A program made the translations under genes and the position numbers. From a virus (Duplodnaviria; Heunggongvirae; Uroviricota; Caudoviricetes), in the IMG/VR virus record IMGVR_UViG_2778261644_000004: a DNA stretch of 8,652 nt. One strand, written 5' to 3'. Every line of letters begins with the position of its first letter. The first letter of the stretch is position 1. Positions 1 through 8,581 of this stretch are shown in pieces. Below the pieces are notes generated by a model. That model searched no databases. It saw only the letters and a program-made list of their open reading frames with translations, and was not told the origin of the DNA.

Positions 1-15
1 GTGTTACCTGGCTAA

Positions 16-615
16 TCAGAACTTATAACCGACACCCACGATGAAACCGTCAGTGCGCCAGTCACCACTGCCGGAGCCTTCATAAGCAATATCAATGGCC
101 ACGGATTCGGTCGGGTTAAACTGCACGCCAGCCCCCCACGCCAGAGACGTGTTGCTGTGGCGACCGTCATCACTTCCGGTCAGCACATCGTGCGTTTTCC
201 CCTTGTTGTCAGTTACGCGAAGATAATCCCCGGAGAAAGTCGACACACGGCTGTAAGCCACACCCGCCATCGCATACGCGCTGAACCATTCATTCACGCG
301 CACAGACGGCCCCGCCATCACGCTGAACCAGCGGTTACGCACGGAATCTTCATGCCAGCGGGTATCGCTGTAATGGGTCAGCTGGCGATTCTTGTCTCCT
401 GCATAGCTGAATGACGTCACCATCCCCAGTGTGTCCGTAAACTCATAACGGTATTTCACGTTAATCCCGTTCAGATCATCGCTGCCGGGAACGTTCGTCG
501 AGGCATGAAGATACCCCGCGCTCAGCGTGGACTGATGTTCAGACGCCCATGCAGGCGCACCGGATACGGCCAGACAAATGGCTGCGGACAAAATGGCGGC
601 ATAAAGTTTACGCAT
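16..615 (-). CDS. lom: Lom/Ail-family outer membrane beta-barrel protein (lysogenic conversion protein)
   Basis: 199-aa ORF with an N-terminal signal peptide (MRKLYAAILSAAICLAVSGAPAWA, AxA-type cleavage site), alternating beta-strand-like segments and a C-terminal aromatic residue (ends ...GVGYKF) typical of OMP beta-barrels. It lies immediately downstream of J on the same strand, as lom does in lambda, and is similar in length to lambda Lom (about 206 aa). An SD-like GAGAGG sits 6-7 nt upstream of the ATG at 615. Confidence 0.88.
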   Translation of the reverse strand: MRKLYAAILSAAICLAVSGAPAWASEHQSTLSAGYLHASTNVPGSDDLNGINVKYRYEFTDTLGMVTSFSYAGDKNRQLTHYSDTRWHEDSVRNRWFSVMAGPSVRVNEWFSAYAMAGVAYSRVSTFSGDYLRVTDNKGKTHDVLTGSDDGRHSNTSLAWGAGVQFNPTESVAIDIAYEGSGSGDWRTDGFIVGVGYKF

Positions 616-636
616 AATTACCTCTCGCTTTTCTGC

Positions 637-663
637 AATAAAAAAGGCGTCATTTCTGACGCC
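637..663 (-). terminator. Rho-independent terminator between J and lom
   Basis: Perfect 7-bp inverted repeat ggcgtca (646-652) / tgacgcc (657-663) with a 4-nt loop. On the minus-strand transcript this is GGCGUCA-GAAA-UGACGCC (GNRA-type loop) followed directly by UUUUUUAUU (plus 637-645). It lies 19 nt downstream of the J stop codon. Confidence 0.6.
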
Positions 664-681
664 CGTTATGGGTTATAAAAT

Positions 682-4083
<3,402 letters not shown>

Positions 4084-4140: not shown

Positions 4141-4788
4141 TCAGCGACCAATCACCACAACCTGACCACCGTCCCCTTCGTCTGCCGTGCAGATCTCCTG
4201 AGATACCACGCGTGACCCCACGCGCATTTCACCGTACAGAACGGGCAGAACATTCCCCTGGGCAACCATGTTATCCAGTGAGGAGAAATAGGTGTTCTGC
4301 TTACCGTTATCCGTTGTCTGTGTGCGGGGAGTTCTGGCTTTCGGTGCCAGCATCTGAGCCACACCGCCCAGGATCATACTGGCCCCTGCCGCATACATGC
4401 CCGATACAGCCGCGGCACCCAGCCAGCCCACAGGGTTCCACCATGCCACCGCAATCAGCGCCGCACCCAGCACTGCCTGAAAAACACCGCCACTTTTAGC
4501 TCCCGCCAGACGCGGCACAATGTGGATCACGGCACCATTTGCCAGCGGCTCATTAAGACGGGCAGATAATTCATTTTCGCCTGCATCACGCCCGGCAATG
4601 CGCACCTGATACCAGCCCTCATTCAGTTTCTGGCGAAACGACGGAAGCTGCGTGGCCAGCGCCCGGATGGCTTCGGCCCCCGTTTTCACACGAAGGTCGA
4701 TGCGGCGGCCAAATCGTTGTAAATCCCCGTAAAGGCAGATGCGTGCCATGCCCGGTGACGCCAGAGGGAGTGTGTGCGTCGCTGCCAT
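4141..4788 (-). CDS. I: Tail tip assembly protein I
   Basis: 215-aa ORF starting MAATHTLPLASPGMARICLYGDLQRF..., in the lambda gpI position between K and J. Its 5' end overlaps the 3' end of K by 103 nt in a different frame, the same arrangement as lambda K/I. The C-terminal part is Gly/Ala-rich and hydrophobic. Confidence 0.87.
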   Translation of the reverse strand: MAATHTLPLASPGMARICLYGDLQRFGRRIDLRVKTGAEAIRALATQLPSFRQKLNEGWYQVRIAGRDAGENELSARLNEPLANGAVIHIVPRLAGAKSGGVFQAVLGAALIAVAWWNPVGWLGAAAVSGMYAAGASMILGGVAQMLAPKARTPRTQTTDNGKQNTYFSSLDNMVAQGNVLPVLYGEMRVGSRVVSQEICTADEGDGGQVVVIGR

Positions 4789-5429
4789 TTGTCTGTATAC
4801 CTCTCTCGTTTGCTCAGTTGTTCAGGAATATGGTGCAGCAGCTCGCCGTCGCCGCAGTAAATGGCGGCATGATTCGGCACCGATGAACCAAAACAGCACA
4901 GCAGCACATCGCCCGGCTGCGCCGCTGACAACGGCACCTGATACAGCCCTGTGGCCTCCAGATTATCCAGATAGAGATTCTGACCGTGACGCCACCAGTC
5001 ATCCTCGCGGTGAAAATCCGGCATCTCAATCCCCGCCAGATGGTAAGCATCCCGGAACAGCGTGTAACAGTCTGTCACCCCGTGCTCAAAGCGCCGTCCG
5101 GTAAGATGCGGCACACAGCGGAACTTGTGAATCGCTCCCCGACAGACCAGCCACCACGGCAAATCACTCTGCACCTGCAGCCGCCTGTCGGCTTCACTCA
5201 GCCAGGGCAGACCACCGGGATGACTGTGGACCAGCGCGACAATCTCACCCTGCATTTCTGCACTCAGCCAGTCCTCCGGCGACATCCGGAAATACGCCTC
5301 CGACTCACCGGAGATATTCACGCAGGGAAAATATCTTTCCCCTTCCGGCGTTCTCACCACGAAGCCGCACGACTCCGCTGGCGCACATCGCCGGGCGTGC
5401 GCCAGAATCGCTGATTCTGTCTCTGTCAT
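4686..5429 (-). CDS. K: Tail tip assembly protein K (JAMM/MPN plus NlpC/P60-like domains)
   Basis: 247-aa ORF. It contains a JAMM-type metal-binding motif H-S-H-x7-S-x2-D (VHSHPGGLPWLSEAD) and a downstream Cys/His pair (GVTDCYTLF ... VPNHAAIY) consistent with an NlpC/P60-like fold. It starts 5 nt after the L stop codon. An internal Met at codon 49 would give the 199-aa form annotated for lambda K. Confidence 0.87.
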   Translation of the reverse strand: MTETESAILAHARRCAPAESCGFVVRTPEGERYFPCVNISGESEAYFRMSPEDWLSAEMQGEIVALVHSHPGGLPWLSEADRRLQVQSDLPWWLVCRGAIHKFRCVPHLTGRRFEHGVTDCYTLFRDAYHLAGIEMPDFHREDDWWRHGQNLYLDNLEATGLYQVPLSAAQPGDVLLCCFGSSVPNHAAIYCGDGELLHHIPEQLSKRERYTDKWQRRTHSLWRHRAWHASAFTGIYNDLAAASTFV

Positions 5430-5434
5430 GGGAT

Positions 5435-6133
5435 TTACTGCGAAAGTTTGTTAATGGAAAGGAAGCCGCCAAAGTTGCCGACATTATTGCGAAACTTACA
5501 ACCGCTCAGGCATTTGCTGCATTTATCCTTCGTAATATCGGACGTCGGCTGGTCATATTCATCCGCAACAACCGGACCGTTATAACCGCACTCATCACCG
5601 CGATAGGTCCAGGTGCAGGTATTAGCCAGCATGATGCGCCCCGGAAAAACGGCACCATCCGTTTCAGTCGGTGTGGACAGTACAAAAGAGGCACTGACCG
5701 CGCTCAGTTCGCTGCACTGCTCGATGCGCCAGCGGCTGATCACCTCCTGCTCCGGATCGGCTTCGCTGTTTCCGTTGATGAAGTTCACCGCATCCAGAAA
5801 ACGGGCATAAACCTTACGCCTGACCACCGTTCCGCCGACCAGACTCTGCAGGTCTTCGGCCATCCCGGTGACCATGCCATACAGGTTAGATACCTTAAGT
5901 GTGGGACGTGCGCTGCTGCCCTTACCGTTCATCTCAAAGCCGCTTCCCTGAATGGGGTACGCCTGATACTTTCGCCCCTGCCAGGTAACCGGTTCACCTT
6001 TTTCATTCTGCTCATTGCAGAAAAAGTAACGCTCCCCACCGACCTCTGTCAGATCAATTTCCCAGAGCACCACGCTGGCCGTCTGCTCCACACGGATGCA
6101 TTCATTCAGTGTTTCCTGTCGTATGTCCTGCAT
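5435..6133 (-). CDS. L: Tail tip protein L
   Basis: 232-aa ORF, the same length as lambda gpL, in the position between M and K. It has a C-terminal cysteine cluster (C..C..DKCSKCLSGC) consistent with the iron-sulfur-binding C-terminus described for gpL. Its ATG overlaps the M stop codon (TGATG). Confidence 0.9.
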   Translation of the reverse strand: MQDIRQETLNECIRVEQTASVVLWEIDLTEVGGERYFFCNEQNEKGEPVTWQGRKYQAYPIQGSGFEMNGKGSSARPTLKVSNLYGMVTGMAEDLQSLVGGTVVRRKVYARFLDAVNFINGNSEADPEQEVISRWRIEQCSELSAVSASFVLSTPTETDGAVFPGRIMLANTCTWTYRGDECGYNGPVVADEYDQPTSDITKDKCSKCLSGCKFRNNVGNFGGFLSINKLSQ

Positions 6134-6471
6134 CAGATCACCACTTCGTCAAACTGACACGAAAAATCGGTATAGGTGATATGTTCTGTCGCTGACCACG
6201 TTCGACACACCACTCTGATTTTTCTGTTAATACCCGGCGGGCGCCAAAAAAAAGATTTATAGCCTTCATGCCGGGCTAAAAATTTTTCAAATGAATCACG
6301 TTCATTCGCCTCAACTTTGAAATCACAGGTGAAAACGCGCAGAGAATGATTAAGTCCATTTGGACTTCGTTGCTCATAACCATCACCAAATCTTACAGTT
6401 TTTATCGATGGTTTATTTTCTGTTTTCATTCCATCCTCTGGTAACCAGTGAAATTCTTCCGTATTAGCCAC
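6133..6471 (-). CDS. M: Minor tail protein M (tail tip)
   Basis: 112-aa ORF from a GTG at 6471; an alternative ATG at 6429 is preceded by GAGGA. It has a VRFGDGY motif and a size characteristic of the phage minor tail protein M family, and sits between H and L. It overlaps the H stop by 8 nt if the GTG start is used. The start codon is uncertain. Confidence 0.75.
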   Translation of the reverse strand: MANTEEFHWLPEDGMKTENKPSIKTVRFGDGYEQRSPNGLNHSLRVFTCDFKVEANERDSFEKFLARHEGYKSFFWRPPGINRKIRVVCRTWSATEHITYTDFSCQFDEVVI

Positions 6472-8581
6472 TTAACATTCCCCCATCACGTCGCATATTT
6501 AACAGATTGCCCTGCACCCGCTGATCAACCATCCCCATAAGTGCTTTTATTGCCTGAGGGCCAATCTCTCCATTCTGGCCGTCATTTTGAATAGTGATTT
6601 GGTATACAGGGGCATAGGTAATATCTCCGCCTCCATTACCACTTTTACTATTAATAGCTCTGACACCAAGAGAACCATCGGAAGTTCGTGTTAATGGCAT
6701 AATGGCTTCCGGTCCAGCCTCACCAAAAACACCAGCCCCTTTTGCAAAAGCAAAAAATTGCGGGGAATCATAAATACCGTTCGAATACGTGCTCAATGAC
6801 GGAGACTCATAAACACCGCCCTTTGCATTCGGAATAAATTTACTAATAGCACTCCCGATAGTTCCTAAAATCCCCCCAGAAGAACTGTTACTAATGCTGT
6901 CGAAAATCCCAGTAATTGAAGCCTTTAATGCTATTCGACTAAGATCCGAAATCACGGAAGTAGCGAAAGAACGAAAATTTGCCTTGCCTGTCGTGACAAA
7001 ATCACCCAGCGCATCGGTCATCCCATCAAACATCTGAGTCGTGGTTGATTTTATCTGCTCACTGATATCCTTAGTGTCATCCAGCCAGTTATTGAATCCC
7101 TGGGAGGCACCACTAACCCAGTCTCCTGCCTGAATATCGAGCTGCTCGTTTTTCTGTCTGACAATTTCTTTTTCCCGTTCCAGAGCATCATTCAGAGCCT
7201 GCATTTTCTCTTGAAAAACATGATCTGACATTCCACGGGATTTATCTGCATAGTCACGTTCAAGTTGCAGACGCTGATTGTTATATCCATGTTCAATCCG
7301 CAGTAATTCCTGCTGGCGTTGCTGATTTTTATCGCCAACCCCATAACCAGCAATCTGAATATCATACCCCTGCTGACGATTATCAATCGAAGCCTGCAAT
7401 GAATCACGCCATGCTGTTATTTCGGCGGATTCCTTGATTAGCCTGTTATTTTTTTCAATCGCAACATTTTTCTCCATCAACGTGGTTATTTCTTCCCGGT
7501 GTAAGAGAAGCGATTTCTGATCCTGGGTTAATTTCGATGATGGTCGTGACTCTAGGTCGGCAATCCGCTGACGCCACTTAACCAGTTCCTGTTCAGAGGA
7601 ACTTAATTTAACGGTCAACTCAGCTTGTGAACTTAGTAACGCATTCTGTTGATTCAGATGATCAATCATTCGTTGGGCTGCATCATCAGAATAACCTTTC
7701 GCCTTTGGTTGCTTTGGATCTTTATAACGCTCATTTATTTGAGCGATAAGATTATTATATTCTTCCTTTGAATACTGATTCTTTAGCTTTTCCAGTTTTG
7801 CAAGTTCACTAGCTCTCTGCTGCTCCCGGGTCTGATATTGTTTTGAAAAGGCATCTGCTCTCTGTCTGAGTTCAATTCCTTCCTGTTGTCGCTTGTTGTA
7901 ATCGTTTATTGATGAATTTAGTACGTCCTGAGCAATTTTTTCTGCTTGAAGTACGCCCAATTGCTGCTTTAATCGTGCCAGCCTTTTATTTTGAGCTCCG
8001 CCATCTCCAATGCCACCTAACCCGAAAACTCCGGGTCGGGTATTTTTTTCTATTTCATCAATTTGACGGAGAACATCTGAGATTTTTTGATCAAGGGAGG
8101 CCTCACGGCCAATATCCAGCATGGAATCCCATGCCCATTTTGCGGAGTCTGCGACAGCTTTCCATGCAGTCTCAAGATAACCAAGATTTTCTTTAATCTG
8201 GTTGGTGCGCTGGATCATTGAGGATGAGTATTCTTCTGTCGCAATGCGGGCGGCCTCCTGCTGGTTCCCTTCATCCTGTAGCGCCTTAATCTGGTTATAA
8301 GTCGCAAGTGTCAGAAAATGGTACTGATCATTAAGTTTTGATATGGCACTGACAGGATCCTTTGCAATTTCATTGAAGTCATTAACCAGTTGTTCGGTTG
8401 ATATTCCTGTTACTTCGCTCGTTTTTACTATCGCTGTCGTCACTTGCTCCAGCGAACTGCTCGCTACCTTTCCCGAACGCACAAGCTGATTTAATACTGC
8501 CGCCGCAGCACCAGTTGTCGAATCAGCCGCATTCCCGGCACGTTGAGCTATATCGCCCAATTGCCCGCTGGTTGTCCCCAA
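6464..8581 (-). CDS. H: Tail tape measure protein (lambda gpH-like), 5' end unresolved at window edge
   Basis: 705-codon ORF with a long Gln/Glu/Lys/Arg-rich predicted coiled-coil centre and a C-terminal region (...FRSFATSVISDL...; ...NDGQNGEIGPQAIKAL...RRDGGMLSG) that I recognise as resembling the C-terminus of lambda gpH. It sits upstream of M as in lambda. The ORF as given begins at a TTG directly after an in-frame TAA (8621-8623), while homology appears to continue upstream in another frame, so the true 5' end is ambiguous. Confidence 0.8.
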   Translation of the reverse strand: MGTTSGQLGDIAQRAGNAADSTTGAAAAVLNQLVRSGKVASSSLEQVTTAIVKTSEVTGISTEQLVNDFNEIAKDPVSAISKLNDQYHFLTLATYNQIKALQDEGNQQEAARIATEEYSSSMIQRTNQIKENLGYLETAWKAVADSAKWAWDSMLDIGREASLDQKISDVLRQIDEIEKNTRPGVFGLGGIGDGGAQNKRLARLKQQLGVLQAEKIAQDVLNSSINDYNKRQQEGIELRQRADAFSKQYQTREQQRASELAKLEKLKNQYSKEEYNNLIAQINERYKDPKQPKAKGYSDDAAQRMIDHLNQQNALLSSQAELTVKLSSSEQELVKWRQRIADLESRPSSKLTQDQKSLLLHREEITTLMEKNVAIEKNNRLIKESAEITAWRDSLQASIDNRQQGYDIQIAGYGVGDKNQQRQQELLRIEHGYNNQRLQLERDYADKSRGMSDHVFQEKMQALNDALEREKEIVRQKNEQLDIQAGDWVSGASQGFNNWLDDTKDISEQIKSTTTQMFDGMTDALGDFVTTGKANFRSFATSVISDLSRIALKASITGIFDSISNSSSGGILGTIGSAISKFIPNAKGGVYESPSLSTYSNGIYDSPQFFAFAKGAGVFGEAGPEAIMPLTRTSDGSLGVRAINSKSGNGGGDITYAPVYQITIQNDGQNGEIGPQAIKALMGMVDQRVQGNLLNMRRDGGMLSG

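Follow-up and report, generated by a model that had tools for sequence, protein, structure and literature searches.

The DNA analysed here, a stretch of 8,652 nucleotides that we refer to as the window, probably carries the lom cassette of a lambda-like E. coli prophage, in which lom lies inside the late operon between J and stf-tfa, is bracketed by one terminator-like hairpin on each side (T1 between J and lom, T2 between lom and stf), and is crossed by late transcription in a manner gated by antitermination. The gene itself, its family, its position, the two hairpins and the selection acting on the stem of T1 are read directly from DNA. As a gene arrangement the locus is already known, the window holding one more copy of a widely annotated textbook order.

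The lom reading frame, taken from the list of open reading frames, occupies positions 16-615 of the minus strand (ATG at 615, stop at 18-16) and encodes 199 amino acids. Its product matches the Pfam family Ail_Lom (PF06316) over all 199 profile positions (1-199/199) with 403 bits (cut-off 23, E 2e-121), and PHROG 108, 'Lom outer membrane protein', with 367 bits, in full agreement with the initial annotation, which had called a Lom/Ail-family outer membrane protein gene at this place. The N-terminus is formed by a signal peptide of 24 residues, MRKLYAAILSAAICLAVSGAPAWA, with AWA at its end, and the C-terminal end reads GVGYKF, with an aromatic last residue. Over its whole mature length, the protein could be aligned with three chains of known structure, those of Lom (9wso), OmpX and Ail; residue 29 falls on residue 3 of mature OmpX, and the core motifs NVKYRYE, AGP and GVGYKF have counterparts in all three chains. 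Both a Sec signal peptide and a small beta-barrel core, the attributes by which members of the Ail/Lom family are recognised, are thus predicted from homology for the lom product, which we take to be an 8-stranded outer-membrane beta-barrel protein of that family.

Rck, Ail, OmpX and PagC of Enterobacteriaceae belong to the same Pfam family and have the same 8-stranded barrel core. The 199-aa Lom is 34-37% identical to Rck, OmpX and Ail, and the third variable region is much longer in the Lom types than in these three proteins. It also scores below the NCBIfam equivalog cut-offs both for Rck (NF011777; 114 against 258 bits) and for OmpX (NF006917; 98 against 176 bits). In a small neighbour-joining tree of the Lom types with Rck, Ail and OmpX, the window protein and the other phage Lom types fall together, apart from the other three, with a modest support of 59%. 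Upstream of the frame we read a Shine-Dalgarno sequence, GAGAGG (621-626, minus strand), directly from the sequence, 5 nt before the ATG; AGAGG is invariant in all 16 aligned spacer variants, lambda included, and the first G is variable. A search with PADLOC gave no defence-system match.

The neighbourhood of lom is that of a late tail operon. J, encoding the tail tip attachment or receptor-binding protein (682-4080, minus strand; 1132 aa), is the late gene directly upstream of lom on the same strand, so that the placement of lom after J, as initially described, stands. Its product contains six J-specific Pfam domains (Ig_J, Phage-tail_3, FNIII-A_GpJ, Ig_J_second, Ig_GpJ_C and Phage_Tail_Tip) and is matched by lambda gpJ in the PDB (8iyk, E 0). 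Further upstream lie the late tail genes I, K, L and M and the 3' part of H, the tape measure gene (4141-8581, minus strand), all recognised by Pfam: Lambda_tail_I in I, Prok-JAB and NLPC_P60 in K, Phage_tail_L in L, Phage_min_tail in M, and Tape_meas_lam_C, TMP_2 and TMP_4 in H. The minus-strand order in the window, namely the H 3' part, M, L, K, I, J and lom, is thus that of a lambda-type tail module on the reverse strand. At its C-terminal end, J has a receptor-binding domain that is 100% identical throughout to 'A8 gpJ 713' in the PDB (9wca/9wcb); the identity extends over no fewer than the last 200 residues, of which the final ~170 correspond to window 685-1200. Since A8 gpJ 713 was solved with OmpC, a chain of which is present in 9wcb, the phage probably uses OmpC as its receptor, its tail tip probably recognising OmpC rather than LamB.

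Two further features of this region were observed. The K and I frames, as listed, overlap by 103 nt (window 4686-4788), and K and I of lambda presumably have the same overlap. An open reading frame of 674 aa runs antisense through J (window 1456-3480, plus strand); it has no Pfam match and, much like orf206b, which is annotated antisense in lambda stf, is in all likelihood a side effect of codon composition.

The spacer between J (stop codon 684-682) and lom (ATG 615) is 66 nt long and contains the hairpin T1, which has the shape of an intrinsic terminator (635-664, minus strand). Its stem pairs GGGCGTCA (664-657) with TGACGCCT (652-645) around a GAAA loop and runs into the T-run TTTTTATTGC (644-635). 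With eight pairs, five of them G-C, a short loop and a T-run at the 3' side (tail TTTTTATT), T1 has the G+C-rich stem and the other hallmarks of this class of terminator. It folds with -13.1 kcal/mol (z = -4.9), and none of 200 shuffled sequences folded as well. A terminator scan of the T1 region is non-significant by count alone (3 found against 1.3 expected), and T1 was therefore validated by conservation. For this we used 151 complete lom loci, comprising the window, annotated phage records and IMG/VR contigs. A hairpin with a T-run is present at the T1 position in 150 of these 151 loci, and it is conserved across the three Lom types that follow a J gene.

The stem of T1 varies between loci while remaining paired: it is found as GGGCGTCA, GGGCACCA, GGGCGCCA or GGGCACCT, the right arm matching in every case, and as CGTCCG/CGGGCG in lambda. 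In an alignment of 16 distinct J-lom spacers, three of the eight stem pairs show changes on both sides (13 cells against 5.0 +/- 2.0 in shuffled alignments, a value reached by none of 500 shuffles), and pairing drops from 90% to 37-58% when the partners are slid against each other. The T-run that follows the stem is invariant in the same 16 spacers. Because the hairpin is conserved, the changes in its stem are compensatory and its T-run does not vary, we conclude that T1 is real and that its stem is under selection. A search of the whole window against Rfam found no family, which sets T1 apart from known riboswitches and sRNAs. When the homologous region of phage 2H10 (9.1 kb) was scanned, the best two terminator-like sites turned out to be those on either side of lom. 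The strong intrinsic terminator that the initial annotation had placed between J and lom is therefore confirmed as a good intrinsic-terminator structure, on the strength of its folding energy, its near-universal presence and its covariation. Luk and Szybalski reportedly described, in 1983, the tandem terminators t'J1-4 distal to J in lambda.

The spacer between J and lom is also a recurrent target of insertion sequences. The sole locus without a T1 hairpin (L012) has an IS66-type transposase inserted at this place, and in two further loci (L006 and L137) an IS4-like element severs the left arm of T1; such insertions could alter the expression of lom in the prophages concerned. In another two loci (L024 and L148) the loop of T1 is inverted from GAAA to TTTC on the same stem, as if the palindrome had been flipped, and in one locus each arm derives from a different variant, giving a chimeric hairpin that still pairs by way of G-U. 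Judged from these sequences, the inverted loops and the chimeric hairpin suggest that recombination may take place within T1.

The second hairpin, T2, lies outside the window and is seen in its relatives, where it consists of AGCCCGCC-GGTTCA-GGCGGGCT followed by TTTTTGTGG and, at -18.2 kcal/mol, is stronger than T1. It is present in about 140 of the 150 loci with enough downstream sequence. Behind T2, 64 nt past the lom stop and on the same strand, stf starts, followed by tfa, an order found in about 139 of 146 informative loci and in lambda too. The window itself reaches into the beginning of this region: positions 1-15 (minus strand; reverse complement TTAGCCAGGTAACAC) are the first 15 nt of the conserved lom-stf spacer, and TTAGCCAGGTAACAC is identical to the start of this spacer in both 2H10 and lambda. 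From relatives that are 96-99% identical, we infer that T2 and stf would follow beyond the end of the window. With its position between J and stf and on the late-gene strand, the gene occupies the place that defines a lambda-type lom locus.

The window was also searched for a promoter from which lom might be expressed, using consensus scans at 9/12 matches, at a relaxed 8/12 and for extended -10 forms, which a weak or activator-dependent promoter could escape. At 9/12, no sigma-70-like promoter was found on either strand of window positions 1-1400. At 8/12, the 350 nt upstream of lom in the window type yielded none either, and all five spacer types that were scanned lacked one in the interval from T1 to the ATG, which is 29 nt long counted from the T-run and of which the last 11 are taken up by the Shine-Dalgarno sequence and its 5-nt spacer. 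The initial annotation had argued from the terminator to an independent expression of lom; a terminator upstream of a gene does not imply a promoter for that gene, and the argument is not supported by these scans. Two kinds of hit were rejected as usable lom promoters: weak 8/12 sites lying inside J, about 360-400 nt upstream, and an extended -10 form, TGTTATAAC, found upstream of T1 in one J type. A -10-like hexamer, TATAAC (672-677, minus strand), lies between the J stop codon and T1. Loci with the 199-aa or the 207-aa Lom type keep it, in the form TTATAACCC or TTATTAACCC; it is absent in lambda, and neither the 9/12 nor the relaxed scans called it. Since it lacks a -35 partner, and since transcripts starting there would meet T1 at once, we treat TATAAC as a weak promoter candidate only. 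Taken together, the scans provide no evidence of an independent lom promoter.

It is established that Q antitermination overrides intrinsic terminators. In lambda the late genes are described as forming a single PR' transcript of about 27 kb (PMC10695390), and polymerase modified by Q passes downstream terminators (PMC8065619). Because stf and tfa are late structural genes and lie past both hairpins, the late transcript must cross T1 as well as T2. By analogy with lambda biology, Q-modified RNA polymerase starting from PR' after induction would ignore T1 and T2, Lom would become abundant as a late protein, and stf and tfa beyond it would be expressed. In the repressed prophage, again by analogy, unmodified polymerase would halt at T1 and T2, so that the hairpins would keep stray transcripts of the tail genes out of lom, and those of lom out of stf, and a low level of lom may come from a weak, unmapped promoter. 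T1 would then be a gate that depends on antitermination and not an insulator against late transcription, the role given to it by the initial annotation, which is not supported in view of the late genes stf and tfa beyond T1 and T2.

Another explanation, which we consider unlikely, would be that T1 and T2 are mainly RNA elements, stabilising 3' ends or acting as barriers to processing and thereby determining how stable the J, lom and stf portions of the long late mRNA are relative to one another, or that T1 is an attenuator of transcripts starting inside J. It would fit with the conservation of stem pairing rather than of stem sequence, with the location of the hairpins exactly at gene boundaries, and with the fact that neither has a terminator role in the late transcript, stf being past both. 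An attenuator would also be in line with the only promoter-like matches being the weak sites inside J and the extended -10 form of one J type. However, an invariant T-run right after the stem is a hallmark of termination and would be needless for a simple stabilising hairpin, and a function of the hairpins as RNA elements is in any case compatible with a gate that depends on antitermination.

Less probable still is the original proposal that T1 ends the late transcript after J and that lom is an independent conversion gene expressed in the lysogen, for which it would have a promoter of its own. T1 does have all the features of an efficient intrinsic terminator, and lambda lom has been reported as a prophage-expressed gene: Lom or lom is reported in repressed lysogens, as cited in PMC1151598, PMC7067206 and PMC12366544, with detection of lom in a lambda lysogen by one study (PMC1151598) and failure to detect it by another, a microarray study (PMC2147009). 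In phi24B, where both the Lom type and the context of the gene are different, equal levels in lysogens and induced cells, and thus an uncoupling from induction, were reported (PMC3342100). Against an independent lom, stf and tfa lie directly downstream behind T2 in nearly all loci, no promoter-like sequence is present either in the 29 nt from the T-run to the ATG or within 350 nt upstream, Q antitermination would override an intrinsic terminator such as T1 (PMC8065619), and Lom is strongly up late in lambda infection according to the ribosome profiling of Liu 2013 as cited in PMC12366544 and PMC9836094. Because the window has no detectable promoter, expression of lom in the prophage is drawn from the lambda literature and not from the window sequence. 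What is left of the earlier claim of lysogen expression is therefore the reported occurrence of Lom in lambda lysogens, and its expression apart from the late operon is not upheld. Lastly, that lom is purely late, with the bulk 'lysogen expression' stemming from a minority of spontaneously induced cells, is very improbable, for although consensus scans detect no promoter, one study did not detect lom in lysogens (PMC2147009) and strong late expression is reported in work cited in PMC12366544, the several reports, cited above, of Lom or lom in lambda lysogens that are repressed speak against it.

The lom cassette has a close and well-known counterpart in lambda itself. Lambda Lom (NP_040601; PDB 9wso; lom at 966-1586 of the lambda locus, L002) shares with the window Lom the family PF06316, the slot between J and stf and the bracket of two hairpins, and the last ~25 residues of the two proteins are identical. 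Over their whole length, however, they are only 47% identical (206 aa in lambda against 199 aa), the window Lom being without an 8-residue stretch in the first variable region. The stem of T1 differs as given above, whereas the hairpin and its T-run are at the same place in both, and the neighbouring J has the probably OmpC-binding 'A8' receptor domain in the window and a LamB-binding one in lambda. At the DNA level, lambda and the window type are only about 50-60% identical over the 3' end of J, over T1 and over the greater part of lom. In the last ~100 nt of lom (L001 about 4980-5030) the identity rises above 90%, and it stays there across T2 and into stf. This jump in identity indicates a mosaic junction inside lom, which explains why the last ~25 residues are identical in all Lom types of long-tailed phages.

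Much closer relatives are 2H10, CP-1639, BP-4795, mEp460 and the Stx1a/Stx2a-converting long-tailed phages, whose Lom is 96-99.5% identical and whose J-T1-lom-T2-stf arrangement is that of the window, with nothing of substance different; public records of these phages already name the gene Lom. In E. coli prophages, its annotation is 'Ail/Lom family outer membrane beta-barrel protein', which is found in thousands of E. coli genomes, and the protein clusters it forms number thousands of members. Short-tailed Stx phages, in contrast, have a fourth Lom type, which is ~41% identical and has a terminator downstream of lom only. We also considered the phi24B micro-RNA 24B_1, described 'in the lom region' (PMC4426718), and rejected it for the window: it lies downstream of this different Lom type of the short-tailed Stx phages, in a region that is absent from the window.

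In HK97, J is followed by stf without lom and without such a terminator, which indicates that the hairpins travel with lom. The HK97 J-stf spacer (L157 5050-5159) has, at the lom slot, a perfect 17-bp inverted repeat, GGAAGGTGCGAATAAGT ... ACTTATTCGCACCTTCC, around ~76 bp, which could be a scar or a small mobile element.

A gene that is present in one phage and missing from its relative is reminiscent of a moron, which in its textbook form has its own promoter upstream. With the lambdoid morons HK97 gp15 and gp22, the window lom shares the property of an extra, non-essential gene between late tail genes that has a terminator downstream and is absent in a related phage; for lom, the phage without it is HK97, and the downstream terminator is T2 as seen in relatives. 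In contrast to the textbook moron, no promoter is detectable upstream of the window lom, and a terminator precedes the gene as well. Nor does base composition set the gene apart, with a GC content of 0.54-0.60 for lom, 0.47-0.56 for the J 3' end and 0.51-0.64 for stf, and thus no clear break. Lom has been cited as a moron product (PMC3594210). The slot between J and the fibre gene is filled differently in N15, which has other small membrane-protein genes there, among them the exclusion gene cor, followed by a terminator. Cor (N15, phi80) and Llp of T5 share with Lom the position of an outer-membrane protein gene beside tail-tip or fibre genes; they differ in being small lipoproteins that are unrelated to Lom in sequence and that target FhuA.

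With respect to function, adhesion (to buccal cells) has been reported for lambda Lom only (Vica Pacheco 1997, as cited in PMC3594210), and adhesion or serum resistance would seem to be family lore and a secondary role for the 199-aa Lom type. A role on the side of the phage appears likely as the main one. PDB entry 9wso contains two chains of lambda Lom together with maltoporin (LamB), the LamB sequence being the same as in the J-LamB complex 8xcj, which implies that 9wso is a solved complex of Lom with the receptor. Furthermore, over-expression of Lom protects against lambda-vir and not against T7 (PMC12366544). By analogy, the main job of Lom is likely to be receptor masking or exclusion, the one case shown being that of lambda Lom with LamB. 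We also looked at whether Lom type and J receptor domain strictly co-vary, as one-to-one masking would have it, and this was not found: the 199-aa Lom occurs with at least four J C-terminal types, the four common ones being seen in 36, 34, 17 and 4 loci. The presence of at least four receptor-domain types beside one Lom type argues against simple masking of one receptor by one Lom.

We nevertheless put forward, as a tentative and rather doubtful proposal built on the lambda case, that the 199-aa Lom may be a late receptor-masking protein and not chiefly a conversion factor: T1 and T2 would keep it near-silent in the prophage, and by Q read-through it would flood the envelope late and mask the porin recognised by the adjacent J, here probably OmpC. 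If this is true, progeny phage would no longer adsorb to infected cells or to debris once OmpC is masked. If Lom proteins mask phage receptors in general, a question that is already being pursued for lambda, they would be relevant to phage host range and to phage therapy. The gene is in any case among the oldest known of the prophage genes that alter the bacterial surface, and its 199-aa variant is present in a large share of E. coli, including Shiga-toxin phages. For the expression of such genes, the locus illustrates that a terminator within an antitermination-controlled operon blocks unmodified polymerase only, and leaves the next gene within reach of late transcription.
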